DNA from: an uncultured Victivallales bacterium
Lineage (GTDB): Bacteria > Verrucomicrobiota > Kiritimatiellia > UBA8416 > SLMC01
Direction of reading: 5' to 3'
Length of the DNA stretch: 39,264 nt
NCBI GenBank assembly: GCA_964646045.1
Contig: CAZYAW010000162.1
Coordinates: 1 to 39,264, forward strand
The notes under the pieces are model-generated. The model saw only the letters and a list, made by a program, of their open reading frames with translations. It had not been told where the DNA came from and did no database searches. A program made the position numbers and the translations under genes. Of this stretch, positions 3,166-23,106 are shown piece after piece (positions within the stretch are counted from its first letter, which is position 1; each line of letters starts with the position of its first letter).

Positions 3166-4038
3166 TCACACGACGTCCGTCGTCAGCAGAGAAAAAATCA
3201 GGGCGACAGCGTTGAACATGGCGTGTATGATGATCGGCGTCCACAGGGAGCGGGTCATGACATAGGCCAAACTCAACGTGACGGCCAGCGTGAAAAGCGG
3301 CAGCAACGCCGGCCCATGGAGATGCAGGAGGGCGAAGACCAGAGCCTGAACGACGATGGCCGGCCAGGGAGACGATATTTTGAGCAGGGCGCTGAAGATG
3401 ACGCCGCGGAACAACAGTTCCTCGAACAACGGCGCCAGAACCACCGCCGTCAGCGTCAGCCAGAAGCGATCGATCCAGGACGTGGCCGGACTGGTAAAGG
3501 CCAGTACCGTGTCCTGCGGCGCGGCCTCGACGCCCAGCGTGTAAAGCAAGCCGATGTTCAGCAAGCCGACCAAGGTCAAGGGCGGAACGATCGCCAGATA
3601 GAGCCAGGCGCCCGTGCGCAGGATCTGTTGCCAGGGTCGAACGAGGGGCGGCGGGCGGGCGGCGGGCGCCGTGACGCAAGACGGGCCGGGCTCCGCTGCG
3701 GGCGCCGCCGGCGGCCCGTCGACGTGGTGACGGGCCAGAATGGCGGCGCGGAAAAGCAACAGCAGCGCCAGCATCGTGGCGAAAGGAAGCGTCAGAGAGA
3801 AGAAGAAAGACGAGAAAGGCAGCCATACCCAGACGAACGGCAACGTCGGAACGACCAGAGCGATGAACCCGACATGCAGGAGGTTCCACGGTTGACGCCG
3901 CACCATGCCGATGCCGACCGGCAGAAAGGCGCGATGCGCCCGCCAGTTCCGGAACAGACGCACGTCCGCCGCGATGCCGAAGCCCAGAAGATTCAAAAAG
4001 AGCCATGCGCCAAGGGTCTGGAAAACATGCATGCGCAC
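3166..4038 (-). CDS. CPBP (CAAX/Abi) family intramembrane glutamic endopeptidase
   Basis: APLFEELLFRG, FALLH and IIIHAMFN motifs; multiple TM helices. Confidence 0.85.
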   Translation of the reverse strand: MRMHVFQTLGAWLFLNLLGFGIAADVRLFRNWRAHRAFLPVGIGMVRRQPWNLLHVGFIALVVPTLPFVWVWLPFSSFFFSLTLPFATMLALLLLFRAAILARHHVDGPPAAPAAEPGPSCVTAPAARPPPLVRPWQQILRTGAWLYLAIVPPLTLVGLLNIGLLYTLGVEAAPQDTVLAFTSPATSWIDRFWLTLTAVVLAPLFEELLFRGVIFSALLKISSPWPAIVVQALVFALLHLHGPALLPLFTLAVTLSLAYVMTRSLWTPIIIHAMFNAVALIFSLLTTDVV

Positions 4039-5980: not shown

Positions 5981-7666
5981 CTAGACCGACCGGGCTTTCA
6001 GGGATACAATGCGGTTGAAAACCGGTGCGGCGGGTCGCGAATCCTGCGGGTCGACGTAGAAATAGCCTTGTCGCTCGAACTGGACCCGTTGGCCGGGCCG
6101 GGCGTCGGCCCAGGCCGGTTCGACCTGGGCGGTGGTTTCGATCAGCGCGTTCGGATTCAGAGCGTCCTTCCAGTCGGCGCCCTCCGCGACTTCCTCGGGG
6201 CGCTCCGTCGTAAAGAGTCGGTCGTAGAGGCGGACCTTGGCCTCGGCCGCATGCCGGGCGGATACCCAGTGAATCGTGCCCTTGACTTTGCGGCCGTCCG
6301 GCGCGTGACCGCCGCGCGTGAGCGGGTCGTAGGTGCAGCGCAGCTCCACGACCGCACCGCTCTCCGCATCGCGTACGACCTCTCGACATACGATCAGGTA
6401 GCCGTAACGCAGTCGCACTTCGCGGCCAGGCGCCAGCCGGAAGAATTTTTTGGGCGGATCTTCCATGAAATCGCTCCGTTCGATATAGAGTTCGCGACAG
6501 AACGGAACCTTCCGCGTGCCGGCGTCGGGATCTTCCGGGTTGTTGACGGCTTCCAGTTCCTCCTCCCGGTCTTCCGGATAGTTTTCGACGACGACCCGCA
6601 GCGGATCGAGAACGGCCATGGCGCGCGGAGCGCAGGCGTTGAGTTCTTCGCGAATGCCGTGTTCGAGCAGGGCCGCGTCGGTGAAGCCGTCGAATTTAGT
6701 GACGCCGATTTTGCGGCAGAAGGCGCGGATGGCGGACGGCGTGTAGCCGCGTCGCCGCAGGCCGCACAGGGTCGGCAGACGCGGGTCGTTCCAGCCGCTC
6801 ACGTATCCGCCTTCCACGAGTTCCAGCAGCTTGCGCTTGCTCATGACGGTATAGGTCAAATTCAGGCGCGCGAACTCGATCTGCTGCGGACGGTGCAGAT
6901 CCAGCGCCTCGAGAATCCAGTCGTAGAGCGGGCGATGCACCTCGAATTCCAAGGTGCAGATCGAATGGGTTATGCCCTCGAAGGAATCGGAAAGACCATG
7001 TGCGAAATCGTACATGGGATAGAGAACCCACTGCGTTCCGGTGCGATGGTGCGCCACCTTGCGAATGCGATAGAGAACCGGGTCGCGCAAATGGAGATTG
7101 GGCGACGCCATGTCGATTTTGGCGCGCAGAACATAGCGGCCCTCGTCGAACTCCCCGGCGCGCATGCGCTCGAACAGGGCCAGATTCTCCGCGGGTGCGC
7201 GGTTGCGACTCGGACTTTCGCGACCCGGTCGCGTCGGCACGCCGCGATATTCGCGGAAGGCTTCGGTATCCAGGTCGCATACATAGGCCTTGTCCAGTCG
7301 GATCAGTTGGCAGGCGCATTCGTAGAGCCGCTCGAAATAGTCGGATGCGTAATAGAGGTGCGTACCCCAGTCCCAGCCCAGCCAGCGCACGTCTTCGACA
7401 ATGGCCTCGGTGTACTCCACGCTTTCGCGGGTCGGATTGGTGTCGTCGAAGCGCAGATGGCAGCGTCCGCCATACTGACGCGCCAGTCCGAAGTTGAGGC
7501 AAATCGACTTGGCATGCCCGATATGCAGGTAGCCGTTGGGCTCCGGCGGGAAGCGGGTCACTACGGCCCCGCCGTGCTTGCCGGCCTCGATATCGGCGTC
7601 GATGATTTCAGTGATAAAATTCGTAACGGCGTCGGCGCCGATTGCCTCTTTCGCTGCCTCTTGCAT
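5981..7666 (-). CDS. glnS: Glutamine--tRNA ligase
   Basis: [24 protein letters not shown] (HIGH motif), [34 protein letters not shown]. Confidence 0.97.
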
Positions 7667-7681
7667 AAATCGTATCCCGTA

Positions 7682-7775
7682 AGGCGGGCGGCGCCCGCAT
7701 CCCTAATTTCAAATGATGCGTCGCTTATGCGTCGCACCTCGCGTCGGAACACTCGCTTATTGAAGTTCTCAACGC
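7682..7775 (-). other. Three-hairpin structured element family 3, copy A (glnS leader)
   Basis: Homologous to 14284-14387 in the same orientation relative to the downstream gene; ends 15 nt before the glnS ATG. Confidence 0.7.
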
Positions 7776-7946
7776 GGCCTGTACGGTCCCGCCGAACGCA
7801 AACGGCGGCGCCTGGCCTGCGTAAAGAGCTATCAAACGGCTTTCGCACCTGTCAACAGGGTTTTCCGACTCCATCGGGTTTTCGTAGTCGTTCACGGTTA
7901 ACAGTTGCTCGAAGGCAAGATCCAATGGCGCCGCAAAAATTGCCGA

Positions 7947-7975
7947 TTGACCTGTCGAACGGATTTCAATAGGTT
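7947..7975 (+). promoter_or_regulatory. Putative sigma70 promoter for the antiporter gene
   Basis: TTGACC-17 nt-TAGGTT; predicted +1 falls at or near ATG 7982. Confidence 0.5.
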
Positions 7976-7981
7976 GCGGGA

Positions 7982-10522
7982 ATGAATGCGATCTCCATAG
8001 GTTATGGCGCTCTGAACCTGCCGCTGGCGGCCGCCGAAGCGCTGCACGGTTTTTCATGGAGCGACCCCATGACGGTTTTTTTCGTCGCGCTGCTGGTCGT
8101 GCTGGTGGCCCCCCCGCTGTGTGAACGCCTGCGTCTGCCCAGCGTGGTGGGTCTGATTCTGGCCGGAATCGCGCTCGGCCCCTACGCGATCGACATAATT
8201 CCCAAGGACAGTCTGGTGCAACCGCTGGGCGAGGCGGGCTTGCTCTATCTCATGTTTCTGGTCGGACTCGAGATCGACATGCAGCGCTTTCGGCGGGAAC
8301 GCATGGCGAGTCTGGTGTTCGGCATGTGGACCTTCTGTATCCCGCAGATACTGGGAACGCTCGGGGCGCGCTGGCTGCTGGATCTTTCCTGGCCGGCCGC
8401 CATTCTGATGGCCAGCATGTTCGCCTCGCATACGCTGGTCTCCTATCCGATCGTACAGCGACTGGGCCTGGTCAAGGAACGGGTCGTCACCACCACGGCC
8501 GGCGGCACCGTGTTTACGGACACCTTGGCGCTGCTGACGCTCGCCATCGTGGCGGAATCCACCCGCAGCGGCGGTTTGACCGCCCTCTTCTGGGTGCGAC
8601 AGATGCTGCTGCTCGCGATCTACGCCGGCACGATTCTCCGCCTGGCGCCCGGTATGACACGCTGGTTTTTCCGGCATATTGGCGGGGTGGAAAGCGTACA
8701 GGGATTTCTGTTCGTGCTGGTGTTCGCCTACGGCTGCGCCGTTGCGGCCCCGCTGGCCGGACTGGAACCCATCATCGGCATGTTTCTGGCGGGCCTGGCG
8801 CTCAATCTGCTGATTCCCGAACAGAGCCGGCTCATGATCCGCCTGCGCTTCTTCGGCGAAGCGCTGTTTATTCCTTTCTTCCTGATTTCCGTGGGACTGC
8901 GGGTCAATTTGGGCCTCGTTTTCGAATCGCGCAAGGCGTGGCTGGTGATGGGCTTCATGGTGGCGGCGGGCTATATCACCAAGTTTCTGGCCGCCGTGAT
9001 CAGCGGCAAGCAGTTGCGTTTCTCGCGCAACGAGATCGGCGTACTGTTCGGCTTGAGCGTCAATCAGGCGGCCGCCACCCTGGCGGCGGTGATGGTGGGC
9101 GTCAATCTGGGCATTTTCTCCGCGTCGGTGCTGAACGGGACCATTCTGATGATTCTGGCCACCTGCCTGCTGGGACCCTGGGTCACCGAACGCTACGGTC
9201 GGCGGCTGGCCCTGCAAGTCGAAGAACAGGCTATGGACAGTTCCGGCGCCCCGGAGCGGACCATGATTCCCGTCAGCGGCGAAGATCAAATCGAAGCCCT
9301 CATGACGCTGGCCATCATGACCCATCCCGCGCAATCGGGCGAAGCGCTGTATCCCGCCGTCATCGCGCCGCACGGCAACGATCCCGAACGGACCGTGGCC
9401 AATGCCGAGAAATTGCTGGCTCATGCGGTCGTACAGGCCGTCGAGGCCGAGATGCCCGTTCGGTCCGTGACCCGCCTGGCGGACAGCATGATCGACGGCA
9501 TACTGGGCGCGTCGCGCGATTTGCGCATTTCCACTCTGATTCTGGACAATCGGCTTTCCTCCGCCACCGAGTTCGAACACATTCCCACCCGCCTCGTCGA
9601 ACAGGGGCGGCATCTGGTGATGCGCTACATGACCCCGGCCCCGCTCAACACCTGCCGCCGCATGCGGGTCGCCATTCCGCCACTGATGGAACGGCAAACC
9701 GGGTTCGGCGCCGCCTGGGAAGTCGTACGCCGATTGACCCGTCAGGCGGGAGTAACCCTGCATGTGTTTGCGGAGGCCCCCACCCTGCAGTCCATGACGA
9801 AGCGCAAGTGGCTGAATGCGGCCGACCCCAATACGGAAAGCGTCCCGCTGCGGCAATGGCGCGAGATCGCCGCCGTTTTGCCACAGCATCAGCAAGCGCA
9901 CGACCTGACGGTACTGTTCATGCCGCGAACCCGGCGGCTCGCCTGGCGGCCGGCGTACGCCCGACTGCCCGATCTCCTTAAGAAAACGCTGGACCGCAAT
10001 CCGCTGCTGGTGGTTTATCCGCCGGAAATGAAATGGGAGAACGATCCCGCACCGCCCGAACAGTCGCCGGCCGGACAGTTCCAGTCCCTGTTCCCGCCCA
10101 ACCAGGTGTTTTTGAACATGCCCGAAACCCGCCTGGACGACGCGCTGCGAAAATTGGTGACCGCCTGCTACCCCGACCGGCCCGCCATTCAGCGCCGCCT
10201 GCTCAAAGATCTTTTCGTCATGGCACGCGAAGCCCCGCTGCGGATTGCGCCGGGATGCCTGCTCCTACATTCGCATCAGGCGGCGCCGCCCGCAGCGCCA
10301 CAGGTGATGCTGGCCACCTGCAAAAGCGGTTTCGCGGAAGAAGCCCCGGCCGACCCCGAACCGCCGCACGCGCTGGTTCTGTTGCTGGGCATTCCGGAAG
10401 AAAGCCCGGAGGAACACCTGCGCCGACTGGCCCGCATCGCATCCATGTTCCATGTCGATGGCTGGCTGGAGCGCGTTTGCGAGGCCGATTCCTATGAGAG
10501 CCTGATCCAGCGCCTGTCCTGA
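7982..10522 (+). CDS. Cation:proton antiporter (CPA2/Kef-like) with central USP-like region and C-terminal PTS EIIA type-2-like domain
   Basis: RLRLPSVVGLILAGIALGP, LMFLVGLEID, FASHTLVSYPIV, GLEPIIGMFLAGLALN, QAAATLAAV; C-terminus GCLLLHSH...EEHLRRLARIA. Confidence 0.85.
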   Translation: MNAISIGYGALNLPLAAAEALHGFSWSDPMTVFFVALLVVLVAPPLCERLRLPSVVGLILAGIALGPYAIDIIPKDSLVQPLGEAGLLYLMFLVGLEIDMQRFRRERMASLVFGMWTFCIPQILGTLGARWLLDLSWPAAILMASMFASHTLVSYPIVQRLGLVKERVVTTTAGGTVFTDTLALLTLAIVAESTRSGGLTALFWVRQMLLLAIYAGTILRLAPGMTRWFFRHIGGVESVQGFLFVLVFAYGCAVAAPLAGLEPIIGMFLAGLALNLLIPEQSRLMIRLRFFGEALFIPFFLISVGLRVNLGLVFESRKAWLVMGFMVAAGYITKFLAAVISGKQLRFSRNEIGVLFGLSVNQAAATLAAVMVGVNLGIFSASVLNGTILMILATCLLGPWVTERYGRRLALQVEEQAMDSSGAPERTMIPVSGEDQIEALMTLAIMTHPAQSGEALYPAVIAPHGNDPERTVANAEKLLAHAVVQAVEAEMPVRSVTRLADSMIDGILGASRDLRISTLILDNRLSSATEFEHIPTRLVEQGRHLVMRYMTPAPLNTCRRMRVAIPPLMERQTGFGAAWEVVRRLTRQAGVTLHVFAEAPTLQSMTKRKWLNAADPNTESVPLRQWREIAAVLPQHQQAHDLTVLFMPRTRRLAWRPAYARLPDLLKKTLDRNPLLVVYPPEMKWENDPAPPEQSPAGQFQSLFPPNQVFLNMPETRLDDALRKLVTACYPDRPAIQRRLLKDLFVMAREAPLRIAPGCLLLHSHQAAPPAAPQVMLATCKSGFAEEAPADPEPPHALVLLLGIPEESPEEHLRRLARIASMFHVDGWLERVCEADSYESLIQRLS

Positions 10523-10566
10523 CACGTATGGCGGACGCGTTTCCTGCGGCCAAACGGTTCGCCTGT

Positions 10567-10606
10567 CACGGACAGACACGGGCGAACACGGGCCGGCACG
10601 GCCGAT
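10567..10606. repeat. Four 10-bp-period CACGG units
   Basis: CACGGACAGA CACGGGCGAA CACGGGCCGG CACGGCCGAT. Confidence 0.6.
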
Positions 10607-10638
10607 AAGAAAGCAACGCGTCGGCGCGCCGGGCGAAG

Positions 10639-10676
10639 CTAACGTATTTCTAATAATTCGCTAACCCCTCTTGAAC
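10639..10676 (+). promoter_or_regulatory. Pho-box-like array (11-bp-period direct repeats)
   Basis: CTAAC (10639), CTAAT (10650), CTAAC (10661), TGAAC (10672) in an AT-rich patch just upstream of pstC. Confidence 0.6.
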
Positions 10677-10726
10677 GGCTCTGTCGGAAGGTGATTCCAG
10701 TTTGCATAAGCGGAAGGAAAACGATT

Positions 10727-11893
10727 GTGGCCACCACCCTTACCACGCGCTCCGAGGAAGAGCCACAGGGCCTGATTCTCAGCGATCGCGCCAGTTTTCG
10801 GCAGAAGATGACCGAACGCATGGGACGGAGCGCGCTTTTCTCCATTGCCGCGCTGGCCGCGCTGGCCGTTCTGTTCATCTTCTTCTACATCGCCCGCGAC
10901 GCAATGCCGTTCTTTCAGTTGCGCGGCTTTCGCGAGTTCTTTGTGACGCGCGAGTGGTATCCGTCGCGCGAACCGGCCTATTTCGGTGCACTCTCCATTT
11001 TCTTCGGCAGTGCGCTGGTAACGTTGGGCGCGGCGCTGGTGGCGGTGCCGCTGGGCATTGCGGCCGCCATCTGCCTGAGCGACGTGCTGCCGTTCGGCGT
11101 GCGCCAGGTGGCCAAGCCGGTCATTGAGATTCTGGCGGCCATTCCGTCCGTGGCCTACGGGTTCTTCGCTTTGGTCGTGCTCGCGCCTTTGCTGCAGAGA
11201 TCGGGCCATACGGTGTTGTCGGCAGGCTGGTGGCTGCTGGCTACGCCGGCGCTGGTTTTGCTGGCGGTGATACTGGGCGATGCGCTGACGGTGGCCGTCA
11301 AAAACCCGGTGACGGCGCGCCGTACGCAAATCGCACTGACCTTGCTGCTGGGCGCGGCGGCGCTGTGGGCGCTGTGGGCCGGTCACCAGGCGATTCAGTC
11401 CCTAACCATCGTCACCGGCGCCAATGCGCTGAACGTTGCGGTTATTCTCGGAATCATGGCCTTGCCTACCGTCGTCAGCGTTTCGGAAGACTCTTTACAG
11501 GCGGTCGGCCGCGAACTGCGCGAGGGCAGTTACGCGCTGGGCGCCACCCGCGCGGAAATGCTGTGCAAAACCGTGCTGCCCGCCGCCAGCAGCGGTCTGT
11601 TTGCGGCCTCCATGCTCGGCATCATGCGGGCGCTCGGCGAAACGATGGTCGTTTGGATGGCCTCGGGCAATGCGGCGCAAATTCCCTCCCCCTGGTACAA
11701 CTTCCTCATGCCGGTCCGCACCCTGACGGCCACCATCGCCGGCGAGATGGGCGAGGCCGACCATGTGACCGGGTCGGCACGCTATCATGTGCTGTTCGCC
11801 ATGGGACTGTGCCTGCTGCTGTTCTGTTTCGCCTGCAATTTGGCGGCCGAATGGGTCGTGGCGCGACAACGTCGTCGCCTGAGGGGGGAATAA
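10727..11893 (+). CDS. pstC: Phosphate ABC transporter permease PstC
   Basis: W.P.....FG....FFGS, KPVIEILAAIPSVAYGFF, LREGSYALGAT, RALGETMVV. GTG10727 after AGGAAA chosen as start. Confidence 0.93.
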   Translation: MATTLTTRSEEEPQGLILSDRASFRQKMTERMGRSALFSIAALAALAVLFIFFYIARDAMPFFQLRGFREFFVTREWYPSREPAYFGALSIFFGSALVTLGAALVAVPLGIAAAICLSDVLPFGVRQVAKPVIEILAAIPSVAYGFFALVVLAPLLQRSGHTVLSAGWWLLATPALVLLAVILGDALTVAVKNPVTARRTQIALTLLLGAAALWALWAGHQAIQSLTIVTGANALNVAVILGIMALPTVVSVSEDSLQAVGRELREGSYALGATRAEMLCKTVLPAASSGLFAASMLGIMRALGETMVVWMASGNAAQIPSPWYNFLMPVRTLTATIAGEMGEADHVTGSARYHVLFAMGLCLLLFCFACNLAAEWVVARQRRRLRGE

Positions 11894-11899
11894 ACCGCT

Positions 11900-13444
11900 A
11901 TGCGTCTATCCACCCGCAAATTACTGGACCGCTCCTTTTCGGCGCTGGGCGTGTTCGCCATTGTGCTGATGGCGATCGCGCTGGCCGTGATTCTGGCTCC
12001 AATTTTCTGGCGCGGCGCGGGCGCCTTTGTCTTTCGGGCCACCGTGGAACACCGCAAAATGGAGCGAACCCTTTTTCTGCGCGGCGACGAAGCGACGTTG
12101 AACCGGGAGATCGCCGAGGCCGAAAAAGCGCGTCAACCCGTGTACGAGTGTCTGGGCCAGTTCAGCCGAGAGCAGGACGAGACGTTGAACCGGGCCATCG
12201 AGGCCGTCGAGCGGCTGGGTCGGAACGAAAGCTCTCTGGGCCGCCGCATTGAGCGTGCCGGCCGCTCCCTGCGCGAACTGGGCGATCTGGAAAAACAGGT
12301 CGAACTGCTGACCCGTCTGGAATCCGTGGCCCGCCGCGAGGCCGACGAGGCGATGACGGCCGACCTGGATGTGATCGCCGGGGCTCTGGCCGATCTGGAC
12401 CGCAACGCGCAGGCCTACGGCGCCGTCGCGGGCATGCTGCGCGAACTGCTGGGTCCGCTGCCCGGCGATCCCGAGCGCGTCATGCCCCGCGAACAATTCG
12501 GCCAGACTCGCTGGGAACGGGCGCAGGTCAAGCGGGACCATTTGCTCTGGTTGGACCGCTGGGACTATTCCGACCGTTCCGTCATGGGCGTTGCCGTGCG
12601 CACGCCGCGGCGCGAGCAATACAAGGGCACGGCGCTGTATCCGATCTTCGATCACATCGAGAATCGTCTCGAGGCCATGCTGCTCCCGCGGCGCACGTTC
12701 TACTGGCGCTTTCTTACGGATGTCGCGCACGACGCCCACTTCTTCGGCGGCATCGGGCCGGAAGCGCTGGGCACGTTCTATCTGACCTTCGGCGCCATGC
12801 TCTTCGCCGTGCCGCTGGGCGTCATGGCAGCCATCTACTTCACCGAATATTCGCGGCCGGGCCGTCTGGTCAGCCTTCTGCGCACCTGCGTCAGCACGCT
12901 GGCGGGAGTGCCCAGCATTGTTTTCGGACTGTTCGGGCTGGCGTTCTTCATCTACACCTTGCGCGTATCGCCGTCCAAAAGCGTACTGGCCGGCGCGCTG
13001 ACCTTGGGTCTGCTGATTTTGCCGACCGTCATTCGCGCCGCGGAGGAGGCCATTCTGGCCGTGCCTCAAACCTACAAGGAAGCGGCCATGAGTCTGGGCG
13101 CCGGCCGCTGGCGCACGGTGGTCACCGTCATCCTGCCCGCCGCGCTGCCGGGCATTCTGACCGGAGTCGTCATCAGCATGGGACGCGCGGCGGGCGAGAC
13201 GGCTCCCATTATTTTCACGGCGGCCGTCAGTGTCGGGGCGGGTTTGTGGCCATGGGAAGTCTTCAATAATCCTACACCGGCCCTGTCCTGGAACATTTAC
13301 AATCTGGCTACCGAACACGAGGCGGTGGATCAGATTCGGCATGTGCAGTACGGCATGGTAACGGTTCTGGTGGGCATTGTGCTGCTGCTGAATCTGAGCG
13401 CCATCGCGCTGCGCGCCAAAATCTCGAAAAAGCTGAGAGGATAG
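11900..13444 (+). CDS. pstA: Phosphate ABC transporter permease PstA with large N-terminal extramembrane insertion
   Basis: [46 protein letters not shown]. Confidence 0.93.
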
Positions 13445-13448
13445 AACC

Positions 13449-14267
13449 ATGAGCGAAACGCAGTATCAGGATTCGCCCGCCCGGGCGCTGCCGCGCGACG
13501 GCCTCGCGGAGAGCGACCTGCACGTGACGGCCCGCGACTTCTCCGTGTTCTACGGCGCCTTCGAGGCGGTCGTAAAGATTTCCTGCGCCTTTCCCGCACG
13601 CGAGGTGGCCGCCCTGATCGGGCCGAGCGGGTGCGGCAAGAGCACGTTTCTGCGCTCCATCAACCGCATGAACGATTTGATCCCCACCTGCCGTGTCGGC
13701 GGGTCGCTGGTGTTCGACGGCCAGGAAGTGTACGGACCCAAGGTGGATATTACCGTACTGCGGCGCCGGATCGGCATGGTTTTCCAAAAACCCAATCCGT
13801 TCCCGAAAACCATCTACGACAACATCGCCTACGGTCCGCGCCTGACCGGCACGCGCCAGCGGGCCAAACTGGATGAAATTGTCGAAAGCAGTCTGATCAA
13901 GGCGGCGCTGTGGGACGAAGTGAAGGATCGGCTCGACCGCAACGCACTGGGTCTGTCCGGCGGCCAGCAGCAACGGCTGTGCATCGCGCGCGCCCTGGCG
14001 GTCGATCCCGAAATCCTGCTGATGGACGAACCGACCTCGGCTCTCGATCCCAAGGCCACCGCGCGCATCGAAGATCTCATCGGCGAGCTGCGCGGCAACT
14101 ATACGATTATTATCGTGACCCACAACATGCAGCAGGCCGCGCGCGTTTCCGATTATACGGCCTTTCTGTACGAAGGCGTGCTCGTCGAATACGGACTCAC
14201 CAAAACCCTCTTCTCCAAACCGGAAAAGCAGCATACGGAGGACTACATTACCGGCCGTTTCGGATAA
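13449..14267 (+). CDS. pstB: Phosphate ABC transporter ATP-binding protein PstB
   Basis: [46 protein letters not shown]. Confidence 0.97.
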
Positions 14268-14283
14268 TATTCGCCAACCGCCT

Positions 14284-14387
14284 TGCGTGGAACCGCTCCG
14301 CAGGGTAGATTGTTCCGCAGCAGAATGCGACGCGGATGCGGCGCATCGTTTGAAATCTGATATACGGGATGCGGGCGCGGCCCGCCT
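14284..14387 (+). other. Three-hairpin structured element family 3, copy B (pstB-phoU intergenic, phoU leader)
   Basis: Shares TGTTCCG, TGCGACGC-N4-GCGRCGCA-TCRTTTGAAAT and GGGATGCGGGCGCSGCCCGCCT with the glnS-leader copy; ends 12 nt before the phoU ATG. Confidence 0.7.
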
Positions 14388-14399
14388 GAGGATGCCGAC

Positions 14400-15071
14400 A
14401 TGATTAGACACCTGCAAAGAGAAATCGAAACCATCAAGCGCAAGCTGCTGGCCCTGTGCGCCGTCGTGGAAAAGAATGTGGCCATGGCCACGAAAGCCAT
14501 TGCCGAACAGGACGCGGAGATGGCCCGGACGGTCATAGAGGACGACAGGCATGTCGACCGTCTGGAGGTCGAGCTGGAGGAGGATTGTCTGAAAATCCTC
14601 GCCCTGTATCAGCCCGTGGCCGTCGATCTGCGCGCCATCGTCGCCGTGCTCAAGATCAACAACGATCTCGAGCGCATTGGCGATCTGGCGGTCAATGTGG
14701 CGGAGCGGGCCGGTTTTCTGGCCTCGCGACCGGCGGTGCCGGAACCGTTCGATTTCGATCTGATGGCCGACAAAGTGCGCGCCATGCTGCGCAACGCGGT
14801 GGACGCCTTCATTGAGAGCCGCAGTCAGGCGGCGCACGAGGTCTGCAAGGCCGACGACGAGGTGGACGCCATCAACAGCGCCATGTACAAAAGCGTCGAA
14901 TCCATGCTGCGGCGCGAGGATGCCGATGTCGGCACGCTCATTCACCTGCTGTCCGTTTCCCGCGATCTCGAACGCATTGCCGACCACGCCACCAACATCG
15001 CCGAAGACGTGATTTACATGATTTCCGGAGAGATCGTACGGCATCATGTCGAAGACTATACCAAGGAGTAG
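14400..15071 (+). CDS. phoU: Phosphate signalling complex protein PhoU
   Basis: QPVAVDLR, DLERIGDLAVN, DLERIADHATNIAEDVIY. Confidence 0.96.
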   Translation: MIRHLQREIETIKRKLLALCAVVEKNVAMATKAIAEQDAEMARTVIEDDRHVDRLEVELEEDCLKILALYQPVAVDLRAIVAVLKINNDLERIGDLAVNVAERAGFLASRPAVPEPFDFDLMADKVRAMLRNAVDAFIESRSQAAHEVCKADDEVDAINSAMYKSVESMLRREDADVGTLIHLLSVSRDLERIADHATNIAEDVIYMISGEIVRHHVEDYTKE

Positions 15072-19024: not shown

Positions 19025-19145
19025 GAGACTCTTGCAAAACCTGGCGGATCGGAACGCGCCCATAGCAGACGGGGCGTCCCGCCTCGTTAAAACGCGGCGA
19101 GACGTTGCGTCTACCATCAAGAATCGGGAGCATGGCAAGAGGTTC
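19025..19145. mobile_element. MITE-like family 1, copy C, carrying a different REP doublet
   Basis: Left end GAGACTCTTGCAAAACC; right end GCAAGAGGTTC (9/11 complementary to the left end); flanks ggga / gggt; internal inverted pair at 19065-19114. Confidence 0.55.
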
Positions 19146-19166
19146 GGGTCAAGAAAGGACGTTACG

Positions 19167-20408
19167 ATGAGCGCATCCCGTCGCCTGGTTTTCGGGCGTT
19201 ACGACTATGCCACCTTTTTAAGCTATTTTGTCTACGCCGCCGGCACGGTGGCGGTGCCGGTGACGCTGGTGGCGCTGTCGAAAGATCTCGGTTTCTCACT
19301 GGAGCACGGCGGCATGACGGCGGGCGGCGCACTGCATCTGATCCGCAGCATGGCCATCGTAGCGGCCATGCTGCTGTGCGGATTTGTCGCGGGCCGCACG
19401 GGCAAGCGTCTGGCCATGGGTCTGGCGGTTCTGCTGCTGGCGACGGGACTGGCCTTTTGCGCCATGGCGCCCTCCTATCCGGTATTGCTGCTGGCTCTGC
19501 TCCTGGCCGGGTTCGGGGAAGGCACGTTTGAAGGACTGGCCACGCCCTTCGTACACGACCTGCACCCGCAAGAATCCGGACGCTACATCAATTTCACGCA
19601 TTCGTTCTGGTCGGTAGGCGTTCTGGTGACGGTGCTGGCCGGCGGCTGGCTGCTGGCGGACAGCGGGTCGTGGCGTACGGCGATGGGCGCGGTATCCGCA
19701 CTGGCGTTCGTGGCCGCCCTATGGCTGCTGCTGCCGACGCGGACGCACGGTCACGCCCCGCCGGAAGACGAACCGGCGCCCTGGCGCAAGGTGGCCGGGC
19801 AAGCCAAGGCCATTATGCGCATGCCGCGTTTCTGGCTCTTTTTCGCGGCCATGTTCCTGGCCGGCGGCGGCGAATTCTGTCTGACGTACTGGAGCGCCAG
19901 CTATTTGCAGATCAACTTCGGGACCGGCGCCTTCGGCGGCGGCGCCGGCGTGGCCTGTTTTGCGGGCGGGATGATCCTGGGCCGCAGCGGATGGGGCTGC
20001 CTGATTCACCAGCAGCGCTTGAACCGGCTGGTGCTCTGTTCGGCGTTGGCGGGAACCGTCGTCACGTTCCTGCTGCCCTGGCAGACCCGTGCGGGCGGAC
20101 TGATGCTCCTGCTTTTTTTCGCGGGAATATGCACGGCCCCCTTCTGGCCCAGCATACAGAGCTATTCCGCCGACCGCCTGTCGGGAGCGGACAAGACGAT
20201 GCTGCTGATCATGCTCTCGTGCGCGGGGATCCCCGGTTGCGGATTCTTCACGTGGCTGATGGGCTTGATGGCCAACCGCTACGGCTTGCGACCGGCTTTT
20301 TTCCTGGTTCCCGGCTGCTATCTGGGCCTTGCCGCTCTCATGGCCGTCGATCGTCGTAGCCGTCAACGAATTCCACAAGGCGGGCTGTCGCCCGCAATTA
20401 CGGGTTGA
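19167..20408 (+). CDS. MFS transporter (FucP/TsgA-like sugar permease)
   Basis: About 12 TM helices; AGRTGKR loop motif; INFTHSFWSVG; AAAGGA RBS. Confidence 0.85.
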   Translation: MSASRRLVFGRYDYATFLSYFVYAAGTVAVPVTLVALSKDLGFSLEHGGMTAGGALHLIRSMAIVAAMLLCGFVAGRTGKRLAMGLAVLLLATGLAFCAMAPSYPVLLLALLLAGFGEGTFEGLATPFVHDLHPQESGRYINFTHSFWSVGVLVTVLAGGWLLADSGSWRTAMGAVSALAFVAALWLLLPTRTHGHAPPEDEPAPWRKVAGQAKAIMRMPRFWLFFAAMFLAGGGEFCLTYWSASYLQINFGTGAFGGGAGVACFAGGMILGRSGWGCLIHQQRLNRLVLCSALAGTVVTFLLPWQTRAGGLMLLLFFAGICTAPFWPSIQSYSADRLSGADKTMLLIMLSCAGIPGCGFFTWLMGLMANRYGLRPAFFLVPGCYLGLAALMAVDRRSRQRIPQGGLSPAITG

Positions 20409-20496: not shown

Positions 20497-21930
20497 ATGA
20501 ACGCAATCCCATCCGCACCGACGCCCATTACGCCCGCTCAGATCGCCAGCCCGAAAAGCATGCCCCTGCCGAACATCAAGGCCGCTTTCGTAGGTTTTGG
20601 CGAAGTCAACACTCCGCGCGACATCGTGGAACGGCTCTGCGACGGAGCGCGCCAACGACTGGAACGTCAGAACATCGAACTGACCGCCAGCGCGCTGGTC
20701 AGCGACGACCCGGCCGGCCGCGAGGCGGCCCGGGCCTGCGCCGCGCTCGACGGCAAACCGTTCGACCTGCTGATCCTTTGTCTGGCCGGCTGGATTCCGT
20801 CCCATGCCGTCATGGCCGTGGCCGACCGCTATCGCCACAAACCCATGCTGCTCTGGGGTCTTTCCGGCTGGCAGGAAGGCGACCACTTCGTCACCGCCGC
20901 CGCCCAGGCCGGAACCACGGCGCTGCGCAAGCCGATGGCGGACATGGGCTATCGCTTCAAGTACGTGGTGGATCGCATGGGCGCAGAACCCGACGACACG
21001 AACCTGCTCGCGTTTGCGCGCGCCGCCCAGGCCGCCGCGCGTTTGCGCGGCGCCCGCATCGGCATGATGGGCTTTCGCGACATGAACCTCTACGGCACCC
21101 TGCACGACGGCGTCTCGCTGCGTTCGCGCATCGGACCCGAAGTGGAGACCTTCGAAATGCTCGAAGCCGTACAGATTATGGAACGGCTCGACCCGCAACA
21201 GGTGGCCGATCTTGTGGCGTCCGTCCGTCAGCGCTGGACGTTCGAGACGGAGGCGGCCGACGAAACGATCGCGCAGGCAGTACGGCTCTATCTGGCGGTA
21301 CACGCCAAAATCCGCGAAAGGGACTATGCCGCCGTCTCGCTGATCGATGTGGACGGCGTCAAGAAACTGCTCCACTTCCCGCCGGCCGCCGCCTTCATGC
21401 TGCTGCACGAGGAAGCCGATGTCTGCACCATTCCCGAGAACGACGCCATGGGCTCCGTCACACAACTGATGACGCGCTTCGTGACGGGCCAGGCGGCCGC
21501 CTACCTGGAATTCTACGAATTTTCCGATCGGACCCTGCTTATGGGCGTGCCGGACTATGTGCCGTCCGAAATCGTGGACGGACCGGTAATCGTGCGGCCG
21601 ACGGCCTTCGGCCGGCTTGGCGAGGGTCTGCTGAATCTCTCCAAGTTGCGCACGGGTCCGGTGACGCTGTGTCGCCTCTTCCATACGGGCAACCAATACG
21701 GCCTGCATCTGGTGCGAGGCGAAGCACGCCGTCCGCGGCGCTGGGAAGAAGCCGGCTGGCAGCCGCCGGCGCCGCTCCTGCCCAGCCTGGAAATCGAGCT
21801 GGCGGATACCACCGTGACTCAGTTCCAGCAGGGCGTGATGGGTCAACACTATATTCTCTCCTACGGCGACCATACTGCGGCACTGCGCGACCTCTGTGCG
21901 CTGCTGGGCGTCAGCGTGGTGACGCAATGA
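20497..21930 (+). CDS. L-fucose/L-arabinose isomerase family protein
   Basis: KPMLLWG, LRGARIGMMG, IPENDAMG (E/D metal ligands), GPVTLCRL, C-terminal GQHYILSYGD. Confidence 0.72.
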   Translation: MNAIPSAPTPITPAQIASPKSMPLPNIKAAFVGFGEVNTPRDIVERLCDGARQRLERQNIELTASALVSDDPAGREAARACAALDGKPFDLLILCLAGWIPSHAVMAVADRYRHKPMLLWGLSGWQEGDHFVTAAAQAGTTALRKPMADMGYRFKYVVDRMGAEPDDTNLLAFARAAQAAARLRGARIGMMGFRDMNLYGTLHDGVSLRSRIGPEVETFEMLEAVQIMERLDPQQVADLVASVRQRWTFETEAADETIAQAVRLYLAVHAKIRERDYAAVSLIDVDGVKKLLHFPPAAAFMLLHEEADVCTIPENDAMGSVTQLMTRFVTGQAAAYLEFYEFSDRTLLMGVPDYVPSEIVDGPVIVRPTAFGRLGEGLLNLSKLRTGPVTLCRLFHTGNQYGLHLVRGEARRPRRWEEAGWQPPAPLLPSLEIELADTTVTQFQQGVMGQHYILSYGDHTAALRDLCALLGVSVVTQ

Positions 21931-23060
21931 AATCCGGCCCCATGACAGATGCGACCGTGGCGGGATATCTTTGCATGGATCTACTGCCTCAAATGCGGAC
22001 GGGTGTCAACGTGTCGTCCTTTGCGGACCTGTTTCGGCCCGGCGCGCTTCTCGAAGTCGGTGAACTGGCTATGACGCTGGGCGGCGCGGTTCCCAATACC
22101 GGCCTGGCATTGCAGCGGTTCGGCAAGCGCGTCTTTCTGAACGGACTGGTCGGCCGCGACCGACTGGGCGACGTGGCGGCGGGGCTTCTGACCGCGCATG
22201 GCGCGCAAGCCGGACTGCGCCGCATGGACACGGCGGAAACCGCCTACGGCATTGTCATTGCGCCGCCCGGCCTGGACCGCATTTTTCTGGAATGCAGCGG
22301 ATGCAATCGTTTGTTTTCCTCGGCCGACATCGATTTCACGGCGGCGGGGAATAGTTGTATCTTTCATTTCGGGTACCCGCCCCTGATGGAGCGGATCTAT
22401 GCGGACGGCGGGGCGGATCTGGTACATATTCTGCAAACGGTACGGCAGCAGGGCGTGGCCACCTCGCTGGACATGACGCTGCCCGATCCCCATGCGCCGG
22501 CCGGCAAAGTGGACTGGGCCGCCTATCTGGCGCGCGTCTTGCCGCACACCGACATCTTCGTGCCCAGCGCGGAGGAACTGCTCTTTATGCTGGATCCGTT
22601 TCGCTATGTCCGCTGTCAAAGCGAGGCCGCCGCAGCCGGCTCGGATGTCGTCGTGTCTGAAACGCTCTGCGCGGAGCTGGCCCGCGCCTGTCTGCGGCTC
22701 GGTACGCGCATTGTCATGGTCAAAGACGGCGCGCGCGGCCTGCAGTTGGCCACCGGCGACTTGGCGCCTCTGCGCGGCAGCCGTTTGTCTTTGCCCGAAG
22801 ACGTCTGGAGCCACCGCGAGCTGCGCGTGGCGGCGGCGCCGGCCGACCCGCAACGGCTGGTCAACGCCTGCGGCGCCGGTGATGCGGCCATCGCCGGCTT
22901 CCTGGCCGCCCTGCTGGACGGCGCGACGCCGGAGCGCGCGGGAACCCTGGCCGCTCTGGCCGGTCGCGACAGTCTCTACGGCGGCAACACGCTCGACGGC
23001 CTGCGCGACTGGTCGGCTCTTTGCGCGGAAGCCGCCGTGCGGACCGCTCAGTCAGCTTAA
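21927..23060 (+). CDS. PfkB/ribokinase-family carbohydrate kinase
   Basis: GYLCMD, GGAVPNTG, GLVGRD, PSAEE, VKDGARG, NACGAGDAAIAGFL; ATGA overlap with the isomerase stop. Confidence 0.9.
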   Translation: MKSGPMTDATVAGYLCMDLLPQMRTGVNVSSFADLFRPGALLEVGELAMTLGGAVPNTGLALQRFGKRVFLNGLVGRDRLGDVAAGLLTAHGAQAGLRRMDTAETAYGIVIAPPGLDRIFLECSGCNRLFSSADIDFTAAGNSCIFHFGYPPLMERIYADGGADLVHILQTVRQQGVATSLDMTLPDPHAPAGKVDWAAYLARVLPHTDIFVPSAEELLFMLDPFRYVRCQSEAAAAGSDVVVSETLCAELARACLRLGTRIVMVKDGARGLQLATGDLAPLRGSRLSLPEDVWSHRELRVAAAPADPQRLVNACGAGDAAIAGFLAALLDGATPERAGTLAALAGRDSLYGGNTLDGLRDWSALCAEAAVRTAQSA

Positions 23061-23061
23061 A

Positions 23062-23106
23062 GCGGGCTACGCCCGCCTGTCTGTGTGCGGACACGCACAG
23101 GCAGGC
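23062..23106. terminator. Tandem GC-rich hairpins between convergent genes (terminator-like or REP-like)
   Basis: GCGGGC-tac-GCCCGC, then a 13-bp stem GCCTGTCTGTGTG / CGCACAGGCAGGC; no U-tract. Confidence 0.4.

Follow-up and report, generated by a model that had tools for sequence, protein, structure and literature searches.

The window, a 39,264-nucleotide stretch of the genome of an uncultured Victivallales bacterium, contains two related non-coding sequences, one in the leader of a glnS-type gene and one in the spacer between pstB-like and phoU genes. The glnS-type class Ic aminoacyl-tRNA synthetase gene lies at 5981..7666 (-) (PF00749, E 5e-102; PF03950; PF20974), downstream of the first copy. 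The second copy is preceded by a pstB-like ABC ATPase gene at 13449..14267 (+) (PF00005) and followed by phoU at 14400..15071 (+) (PF01895, E 9e-46). The Pfam matches place a class-Ic Gln/Glu-tRNA synthetase and PhoU downstream of the respective copies.

The glnS copy (7679..7753, (-)) is composed of a left module that begins with GTTCCGACGC, the P2 palindrome (7715-7738), the linker CATCRTTTGAAAT with one heptamer-type unit (7706-7718), the right-module hairpin P3 (7684-7698), and the tail TTAC (7679-7682). Its left module scores 25.1 bits in nhmmer, its right module has an E-value of 4.7e-5, and the covariance model gives 75.4 bits. The phoU copy (14309..14390, (+); left module 15.4 bits, right module E 4e-4, covariance model 81.9 bits) follows directly after a TAG at 14306-14308. 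It comprises the left module (14309-14323), P2 (14324-14347), a linker (14344-14365, with CATCRTTTGAAAT at 14344-14356), P3 (14371-14385), and the tail TGAG (14387-14390). P2 of both copies has a purine-purine mismatch at the same stem position, and the 22-mer shared by the copies stops 15 nt short of the ATG at glnS and 12 nt short of it at phoU. Consensus scans detected no promoter or intrinsic terminator inside either copy. The original prediction described a ~100-nt element of three hairpins upstream of both genes. P2, the linker, P3 and the spacing to the start codons are confirmed as common to the two copies, but P1 is not part of the element, and the homologous unit is shorter, ~75-82 nt.

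The 5' arms of P1 are flanking DNA beyond the repeat boundary. In the glnS copy, the arm at 7765..7775 (-) pairs with 7741-7750 in a duplex of -16.7 kcal/mol (p = 0.027 against shuffled flank); in the phoU copy, the arm at 14284..14293 (+) can pair with 14312-14322 (p = 0.033 against shuffled flank). The proposed stem can form in both window copies, but it is absent from the minimum free energy fold of the phoU spacer, and the 28 further left modules tested all lack pairing of this type. A chance origin of a pairing present in both window copies and missing from the other 28 is unlikely. The element-free glnS leader of a sister-genus genome (G003) carries a GCGGTTGAAAAC stretch resembling the 5' arm of the glnS P1.

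The glnS and phoU sequences resemble each other far more than expected by chance, since their modules are repeated dozens of times across the genome (G000; 3.0 Mb, 311 contigs, 62% G+C). It contains ~30 left modules with the P2 palindrome (30 oriented matches including the left end, E <= 0.05) and 65 right modules formed by the P3 hairpin and a TTAG-like tail (matches with a recognisable core, E <= 1). A loose regular expression for whole units returned mostly noise and served only for the coordinates of clear copies. The window copies are among the weakest left-module matches, with 25 and 15 bits versus 59. Right modules are intergenic in 63 of 65 cases and are found in both orientations and on both strands. 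In 37 cases the right module is followed by a gene start and in 23 by an opposite-strand stop, and the contexts include stop/start (19), start/stop (12), divergent (12) and convergent (7) arrangements. The lone P3-like hairpin previously placed at 23062-23078 is a solitary, reverse-oriented right-module hairpin at 23061..23074 (-), at distance 0 from the stop codon of the open reading frame 21927-23060 (+). An antisense right-module hairpin with a variant 4-nt loop (20379..20393, (-)) overlaps the last 30 nt of the open reading frame 19032-20408 (+).

A typical unit starts directly after TTAG or TAG with a left module carrying the 10-bp palindrome P2, continues through a variable middle part of tandem ~7-9-nt units, sometimes with an additional hairpin, and ends with a right module, common to several repeat types, in which the 6-bp G+C hairpin P3 is followed by C-TTAG/TTGG/TTAA-G. 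The distance from the left end to P2 is 15 nt, and a single nucleotide separates P3 from the right TTAG. The linker, originally regarded as conserved and unpaired, is a run of ~7-nt units (TGAAATN) that vary in number, with one or two in the window copies, three or four in most G003 copies, and ~11 in one G003 copy. A TAG stands before 11 of the 30 left modules, extended to TTAG in seven, mostly the best-scoring ones; a second left-module type likewise begins at TTAG. The 65 right tails read TTAG (14), TTGG (12), TTAA (8) or other tetranucleotides (31), with GTAG in only two. At L103 and at C75 7914-7935, a right end abuts the next left end with TTAA or TAAG in common. The two junctions both carry TTAG-like tetranucleotides, which are compatible with either a 3-4-bp duplication or a target joined to the tip of the element. 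Terminal inverted repeats were not found in 14 left-plus-right units, in which the left end (ATTGTTCCGTCG...) bears no relation to the right end read as its reverse complement. In some G003 copies, right modules at both ends are arranged as mirror images on either side of the P2 palindrome. The modular mosaics resemble BIMEs.

P3 is nearly invariant, and P2 decays through mismatches. The covariation anticipated for a conserved RNA is missing: 16 pairs in 14 copies score 0.068, below the shuffle mean of 0.079, and 409 of 500 shuffles reach or exceed this value; both sides changed in one of the 16 pairs. Rare compensated stem variants are present at C272 and C139.

The repeat is confined to its own genus and the sister genus, with essentially none in the rest of the order. 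The pattern GCGGGCGNNGCCCGCCTTRGG, with at most one mismatch, occurs 30 times in G000, 33 and 73 times in the sister-genus genomes G001 and G003, not at all in G002, the third other genome of the family, and 0-5 times in each of the remaining 60 genomes of the order. As a control, the pattern was reversed; this version is absent from every genome except one with a single match. A covariance-model search (model R1) returned 27, 23 and 40 copies in G000, G001 and G003, one in G002, and single marginal matches (E 0.004-0.008) in 5 of 37 other genomes.

None of the three other genomes of the family has the element at the orthologous glnS or phoU leaders. The pstB-phoU spacers of G001 and G003 are 63-70 nt long and element-free, as are the glnS leaders of G003 and G002. 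The empty phoU site of G001 has a single TAG followed by the same GATGCCGACATG, where the window reads TAG-element-TGAG. G000 lacks the element at all eight occupied G003 sites whose flanks are syntenic; at one of them (L007), the stop codon lies within the left TTAA, and G000 has TAG-GC-ATG there. Nor does the element occur at 80 metagenomic phoU loci or at 80 glnS loci from other species, the latter with one marginal right-module match (E 0.44) that is not in a leader. PhoU orthologues from G003 and G001 are 83-86% identical, and the best PhoU match in metagenome contigs is only 62% identical, so no fine-scale presence/absence series could be assembled. The closest named GlnRS matches are from a Victivallales MAG (73%) and a Kiritimatiellia MAG (67%).

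The glnS and phoU sequences very probably belong, as old and diverged copies, to a dispersed repeat of the REP/BIME/MITE kind that is modular, non-coding and specific to this lineage, an option that the original prediction had offered as its alternative and that is favoured by copy number, orientation and the empty orthologous sites. We hypothesize that the units were dispersed by insertion at the DNA level, with TTAG as a sequence either targeted or regenerated. The mechanism may be a single-strand, hairpin-recognising one of the HUH type or related, which we favour because the ends are asymmetric with subterminal hairpins and are not inverted repeats. In a genome with 62% G+C, TTAG would be located mostly at stop codons and beside Shine-Dalgarno sequences, so that surviving copies would have their P3 end before a Shine-Dalgarno sequence and ATG or after an opposite-strand stop, the TAA of which the element may regenerate. 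The ends coincide with TTAG or TAG, in many cases a stop codon or the base that precedes the Shine-Dalgarno sequence, which probably explains the matching positions of the glnS and phoU copies. Any effect on glnS or phoU expression would be a by-product, mediated possibly by a stable hairpin abutting the Shine-Dalgarno sequence or by a lengthened leader or intercistronic spacer, and not the action of a dedicated phosphate or glutamine sensor. The TTAG-linked junctions, stop regeneration and Shine-Dalgarno retention suggest how a selfish repeat can occupy gene edges harmlessly.

No transposase partner was identified for the repeat. The possibility that the right module is a guide-RNA scaffold of a TnpB/omega-RNA system was dropped, as G000 has no match to the TnpB-type domain PF07282. 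Y1_Tnp has five matches in G000 and seven in G001 and G003, none flanked on both sides by modules in these fragmented, 79-91% complete genomes, and a RAYT/REPtron link was rejected since the Y1 genes of the three genomes are not bounded by modules. Right modules lie ~0.6 kb and 0.2-0.3 kb from two G003 Y1 genes, an association that is not convincing. Y2_Tnp matched just one C-terminal fragment, on C171, without modules in its vicinity, and an IS91-like rolling-circle origin was therefore rejected. A left module-ORF-right module arrangement or an autonomous partner with the same ends was not found in the incomplete assembly. An integron attC origin, considered for its TTAG-type core sites, was discarded by inspection, as the TTAGG tail has no pairing partner in the sequence 5' of P3. 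Since no mobilising gene was identified, we infer mobility from presence and absence between genera that are ~80% identical in protein.

Members of the IS200/IS605 family have subterminal hairpins and insert on the 3' side of a fixed sequence of four or five nucleotides (TTAC in IS608, for example). The repeat has hairpins near both ends and a fixed tetranucleotide beside the insertion, at the left junction and the right tip, as do the non-autonomous derivatives of this family, and also shares with them asymmetric ends devoid of terminal inverted repeats and head-to-tail abutment with the tetranucleotide in common. It differs from them in that no TnpA or TnpB partner bearing its ends was found, that several different left modules are combined with one right module, and that some G003 copies are mirror forms. 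Other comparable systems are MITEs such as the Correia elements of Neisseria and mosaic repeats such as pneumococcal BOX. Like Correia and BOX, the units are ~100-150-nt non-coding repeats beside genes, co-transcribed, modular and able to form RNA hairpins; unlike in MITEs, the typical left-plus-right units lack terminal inverted repeats, and target duplication is indistinguishable here from target plus element tip. Structured leaders (riboswitches, T-boxes, ribosomal-protein leaders) have a similar position beside the Shine-Dalgarno sequence in the 5' UTR and several hairpins, but the repeat has no Rfam match, no covariation and no conservation at orthologous loci.

As in REPs, the palindromes are short, extragenic, imperfect and present in many copies in both orientations. 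GTAG follows P3 in only 2 of 65 copies, and CGTC does not adjoin the stem: in the consensus of the left module, 4 nt separate it from the 10-bp stem of P2. In their survey of GTAG- and CGTC-tagged palindromic repeats, Di Nocera et al. (2013, PMC3733652) delimited 28 families and reported tagged REPs from the PVC group. As characterised in that survey, the REP/BIME of Enterobacteria and the tagged repeats share with ours a short G+C-rich extragenic palindrome in tens of copies, an unpaired conserved tetranucleotide at one stem end, both orientations, frequent location just 3' of coding regions, transcription with neighbours, mosaic formation and lineage specificity. Our repeat differs in its tag, TTAG/TTRG 3' of the hairpin (GTAG in 2/65), and in its composite unit of 75-150 nt (left module, variable tandem units, right hairpin) instead of a 20-40-bp palindrome. 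The repeat may belong to one of the 28 families of the survey. Unlike in a REPtron, no RAYT gene is flanked by the repeat here. The repeat is a lineage-specific member of ordinary selfish or REP-like DNA, not a dedicated regulatory RNA, and documents such a family in a poorly studied, uncultured lineage of the PVC group.

It is very unlikely that the two copies constitute a dedicated cis-regulatory RNA (a riboswitch, leader or protein-binding 5' UTR) co-regulating glnS and phoU, the reading preferred in the original prediction. It could account for the sense orientation of both copies, with ends 15 and 12 nt before the ATG at the Shine-Dalgarno sequence, for their transcription with their genes in RNA libraries, for the additional P1 flank pairing, and for the fold of the glnS leader, which is better than shuffles (z = -3.1). 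However, the phoU spacer folds no better than shuffles (z = +0.34), the linker varies in length, and dozens of copies stand beside unrelated genes in both orientations, seven of them between convergent genes. The orthologous leaders in G001-G003 and the 80 + 80 more distant loci are without the element, and the stems do not covary. Copies in both orientations, convergent gene pairs included, and missing covariation are among the results that the original prediction had itself named as refuting. Rfam gave no match at the gathering score in the whole window and none even at E <= 1 in both regions, in agreement with the original impression that no known riboswitch or T-box is present. A false lead is thereby removed, as there is no shared glnS/phoU riboregulator here. 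Binding of gyrase, IHF or a nucleoid protein has been proposed for REP/BIME of E. coli. An array of such protein-binding sites, or a recombination site, with neither RNA role nor mobility would suit G+C palindromes strongly conserved in sequence rather than pairing and arranged in BIME-like mosaics; we consider it extremely unlikely here, since orthologous presence and absence with sharp TTAG-type junctions points to insertion.

The elements are co-transcribed with neighbouring genes in metatranscriptome contigs. Three RNA-library contigs, from three runs of one study, span pstB, the element and phoU (13881-14440, 13765-14409 and 13817-14399), and one spans 7481-7792 at the glnS copy. Right ends are located at most 41 nt from a start or at most 7 nt from a stop in 42 of 60 cases (70%), where starts come from a purpose-written simple caller that may put them too near the element; unoccupied non-coding TTAG sites lie at the same distances in 177 of 718 cases (25%). 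The preference is repeated in fetched loci of relatives (19/27). A simple TTAG-target null accounts for only part of this bias, and the approximately threefold excess at gene edges is a residual oddity. SD-like sequences accompany 15 of 25 starts behind right ends, compared with 1176 of 2256 genome-wide.

The gene-edge excess would be expected if copies of a selfishly spread repeat were kept since their RNA hairpins work as mRNA boundary elements, an exaptation that we regard as unlikely. Cleavage within the A/U-rich heptamer linker would leave P3, directly 5' of the Shine-Dalgarno sequence, as a hairpin that protects or insulates the 5' end. Behind stop codons, P2 or a reverse-oriented P3 would stabilise 3' ends, and neighbouring genes such as pstB and phoU would be uncoupled in their expression. 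The A/U-rich single-stranded linker between two G+C hairpins, the rare compensated stem variants and the co-transcription are consistent with this function. Two of the three RNA contigs stop at 14399-14409, but contig ends and uncovered parts are not readable as RNA ends. Furthermore, P2 decays without compensation, and none of the ten compared insertion sites is common to both genera, so no copy shows long-term retention. The boundary bias, with distances from right end to start of 0-41 nt in 25 cases, 56-84 nt in 3 and at least 165 nt in 9, can also stem from purifying selection against promoter hits. There is a slim but appreciable chance that the units represent an undescribed class of TTAG-tagged, hairpin-ended non-autonomous elements without a recognisable transposase, the right module of which, a G+C hairpin with TTAGG, was co-opted as a portable gene-edge cassette. 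If so, the sense orientation would deliver a hairpin-plus-Shine-Dalgarno junction before start codons and the antisense orientation a stop codon with a 3' hairpin, shaping mRNA ends and uncoupling cistrons such as pstB and phoU across two uncultured PVC genera.

As a dispersed repeat, the family also breaks assemblies and can mislead gene callers and motif hunters. Modules lie at most 300 nt from contig ends in 6 of the 30 left and 9 of the 65 right cases, compared with 6% expected.

The sequences upstream of glnS and phoU are copies of an apparently new, lineage-specific dispersed repeat of the REP/BIME/MITE kind. The copies span positions 7679-7753 (-) in the glnS leader and 14309-14390 (+) in the pstB-phoU spacer. 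Reading and alignment of the two stretches bear out the original prediction that both copies contain the P2 palindrome (7715-7738 (-) and 14324-14347 (+)), in which a purine-purine mismatch falls at the same place in the stem, a common CATCRTTTGAAAT stretch, and a near-identical GGGATGCGGGCGCSGCCCGCCT block. The core of the block is P3, a 6-bp G+C hairpin located at 7684-7698 (-) in the glnS copy and 14371-14385 (+) in the phoU copy. The block ends, as predicted, 15 nt from the ATG of a gene encoding a class-Ic Gln/Glu-tRNA synthetase and 12 nt from that of phoU, both products being assigned by Pfam. The phoU neighborhood is formed by two ABC-transporter permease genes, a pstB-like ATPase gene, phoU, and a phoB/phoR-like pair, also according to Pfam. 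The original prediction recognized no known riboswitch or T-box in the element, and Rfam has no matches in the whole window at gathering score or in the two copy regions at E <= 1. Divergent from glnS lies a gene (7982-10522 (+)) for an 846-aa protein composed of a Na+/H+ exchanger membrane domain and a C-terminal region that matches PTS EIIA-2 below threshold (22 bits against a cut-off of 27).

The window is contig C162 of the host genome assembly, G000 (3.02 Mb, 311 contigs, 62.5% G+C), in which BLAST and motif scans detect parts of the element on dozens of other contigs. The repeat is composed of a left module containing P2 and a right module formed by P3 and a TTAG-like tail. The left-module profile, whose consensus reads TTAG-ATTGTTCCGTCGTAA and continues with the perfect 10-bp palindrome GATGCGACGC-NNNN-GCGTCGCATC, identifies 30 oriented copies in G000 in which the left end is present (E <= 0.05). 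At 25 and 15 bits, versus 59 for the best copy, those of the window rank among the most diverged, and their P2 mismatch is simply an A-T pair of the canonical palindrome that has mutated. In some copies one P2 arm is gone and GATGCG-N-CGCATC remains, which is the behavior of a DNA palindrome and not of selected RNA helices. The right-module profile identifies 65 G000 copies with a recognizable core (E <= 1), 63 of which are intergenic by our own gene calls. Additional right-module hairpins in the window are located at 20379-20393 (-), antisense within the final 30 nt of the ORF 19032-20408 (+), and at 23061-23074 (-), directly 3' of the stop codon of the ORF 21927-23060 (+).

One right module is common to several repeat types with differing interiors. 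The window type contains TGAAATN heptamers, another has tandem ATTCGCG-type units and, in some copies, an extra hairpin, and a further one has a long TCTGAC-rich hairpin. The stretch between P2 and P3 is common to both window copies, but it is a variable-number tandem repeat rather than the conserved single-stranded linker that had been proposed. There are 1-2 heptamer units in the window copies, 3-4 in most copies of the sister-genus genome G003, and ~11 in one G003 copy. The linker of this last copy (locus L116, about 1995-2062, on G003 contig C6) is built of ATGAAAT, GTGAAAT, and GTGAGAT units, and its expansion is a microsatellite-like length variation within the repeat. A second repeat type with the same right module, found in G000 at contigs C75 21680-21775, C26 about 13808-13960, and C272 about 8431-8600, has TTAG-YGCCTTAATCAACCTGTCC as its left end, and its long hairpin consists of tandem units of the AGAGGTCAG / CTGACCTCT type. 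In mirror-image chimeras of G003 (loci L102 about 2050-2205, L116 about 1940-2095, and L114 about 1990-2115), two arms of differing repeat type meet at the P2 palindrome, which suggests recombination or inversion at that point. The L102 chimera has a right-module hairpin at either end and in this resembles a MITE whose ends are inverted. A dispersed hairpin repeat unrelated to the family, GGGCGGGACGCCCATGCCAC / CGGGCAAGATGCCCGTGCCAC, often adjoins it in G000 (C19 about 3470-3550, C152 1-90, C172 about 10960, C179 about 8290, C286 about 1-110, and C119 about 2700).

BLAST with the glnS copy as query gives matches in 4 of 41 genomes: G000, the sister-genus genomes G001 and G003, and one genome matching in the flank only. 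The P3-plus-tail pattern has 30 matches in G000, 33 in G001, and 73 in G003. It is missing from G002, which represents the third genus of the family, and has 0-5 matches in each of the order's 60 remaining genomes; reversed as a control, it has 0 matches, except for a single match in one genome. A covariance model built from 14 copies finds 27, 23, 40, and 1 matches in G000, G001, G003, and G002, and one marginal match each in 5 of 37 other genomes. G026, from another family of the order, has five near-identical hairpins with a different tail, GCGGGCGTGGCCCGCCTTGGT, in which the right module may have a distant relative beyond its own family.

The original prediction preferred a cis-regulatory RNA common to glnS and phoU to a dispersed REP-like repeat. 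The pstB-phoU spacers of G001 and G003 (63-70 nt) and the glnS leaders of G003 and G002 lack the element; the G001 contig begins within glnS, which leaves its leader out of the comparison. The sole match in a profile scan of all six loci is a right module 1.3 kb downstream of G003 glnS. Modules are found in 0 of 80 metagenomic phoU loci (52-63% identity), and 80 glnS loci of other species contain only one marginal right-module match (E 0.44), outside the leader. Eight filled G003 sites have both flanks on a single G000 contig, and in G000 all eight are empty; no insertion is common to both genera among 10 sites compared. Orientation and covariation are the tests that the prediction had named beforehand. 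The 3' side of the right module faces the start of a co-oriented gene in 37 copies, and in 23 it faces an opposite-strand gene at its end. By context, 19 copies are stop/start, 12 start/stop, 12 divergent, and 7 convergent. When 14 copies of the window's repeat type, drawn from three genomes, are aligned, P3 is almost invariant, P2 is 78% paired, and one pair only is changed on both sides. The covariation score of these copies, 0.068, is below the shuffle mean of 0.079 and is reached by 409 of 500 shuffles. By the criteria that the prediction had set, the many copies in mixed orientation and the lack of covariation refute the shared regulatory RNA, the empty orthologous leaders also speak against it, and the dispersed repeat named as the alternative is correct.

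P1, the pairing of the left module with its upstream flank, is present in the two window copies only, and its 5' arms lie beyond the repeat boundary. The pairing beats shuffled flanks in the window copies (p = 0.027 and 0.033) and is not above shuffled flanks in the 28 other copies (median p over all 30 = 0.44). P1 is absent from the minimum free energy fold of the phoU spacer, and this spacer folds no better in energy than shuffles do, whereas shuffles are less stable than the glnS leader (z = -3.1). The 5' arms show short resemblances to leaders of G003 and G001 that have no element, which suggests that the arms are pre-existing flank, in spacers too diverged for certainty. The flank pairing in both window copies remains a small coincidence that the dispersed repeat does not explain.

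The empty phoU site of G001 reads TAG-GATGCCGAC-ATG, and in the window an 82-nt unit ending in GCCCGCC-TGAG stands between TAG and GATGCCGAC-ATG. The unit therefore lies exactly between TAG and the SD-like GAGGA/AGGA. The left module is preceded by TAG in 11 of 30 copies and by TTAG in 7, mostly the best-scoring, and a second left module, unrelated to the first, also starts at TTAG. Of the 65 right modules, 34 have the tail TTAG, TTGG, or TTAA. At G003 loci L007 and L107, the stop codon of the upstream gene falls within the left TTAA, and at L011 the right TTAG coincides with the stop codon of an opposite-strand gene; the G000 counterparts of these three sites have no unit. At two places, a right end abuts a left end with the tetranucleotide in common. 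TTAG/CTAA is rare in G000 (1,789 sites), and 45% of the sites are in the non-coding 12% of the genome. We propose that the element inserts at TTAG-like sites and that its tip regenerates the tetranucleotide. This would explain why the tail TTA serves as the stop codon in 11 of 23 opposite-strand genes and why sense copies end just before the SD. In its asymmetric ends, subterminal hairpins, and fixed tetranucleotide, the studied repeat resembles IS200/IS605-type or REP-type single-strand elements. We infer this likeness from general properties of those families and from a tagged-REP survey (PMC3733652).

In G000, 42 of 60 right ends are located <=41 nt from a start or <=7 nt from a stop, as are 19 of 27 right ends in the loci fetched from relatives. 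Of 718 non-coding TTAG sites without an element, no more than 177 lie so close; the start calls are our own and possibly biased toward the element. Distances to starts are bimodal, with 25 right ends at 0-41 nt, 3 at 56-84 nt, and 9 at >=165 nt. This distribution fits selection against insertions into promoters; a narrower target would fit as well, and so would a useful function of the hairpin at the edges of genes. The rate of SD-like sequences at starts next to the element, 15 of 25, is not below the 1176 of 2256 of the genome. The repeat thus combines TTAG-linked junctions with an unexplained preference for gene edges. The tagged-REP survey lists REP families in PVC bacteria (PMC3733652). 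Our literature search found only general tagged-REP and HUH surveys and no description of this repeat family, which may yet coincide with one of those in PMC3733652.

The assemblies searched for mobilizing genes are 79-91% complete and broken at these repeats, so that such a gene may have been missed. The incomplete G000 assembly contains no TnpB-type match and no left module-ORF-right module arrangement; one left/right pair is 5.4 kb apart, with six genes between. None of the five Y1_Tnp matches in G000, among which are genes on contigs C3 and C199, or the seven in G001 and G003 is flanked by modules. The sole Y2_Tnp match is a fragment, an isolated C-terminal part of an IS91-type transposase near a contig end (G000 C171 2883-2993 (+)). 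The gene at G000 C119 2952-3794 (-) encodes a 280-aa protein that matches Y1_Tnp (HUH). It has its own repeat (CGTCSGCCTCCACCGGCRCAAGGCCGGCGG) on both sides, distinct from the studied family, and may form a REPtron-like unit separate from it.

Four metatranscriptome runs of one study contain parts of the window, and three of them were compared, plus one DNA run. Contigs of three RNA runs cover the 3' end of pstB, the entire element, and the start of phoU (13881-14440, 13765-14409, and 13817-14399), and one RNA contig covers the 5' coding part of glnS and the entire element, up to 7792. Each differs from the window at 0-1 positions. Two of the three contigs across the pstB-phoU element stop at 14399-14409, <=10 nt from the phoU start codon; neither RNA ends nor the absence of DNA carry-over can be read from contigs. 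Both window elements lie within transcribed stretches, and the glnS copy is not the promoter source of the RNA contig that ends at 7792.
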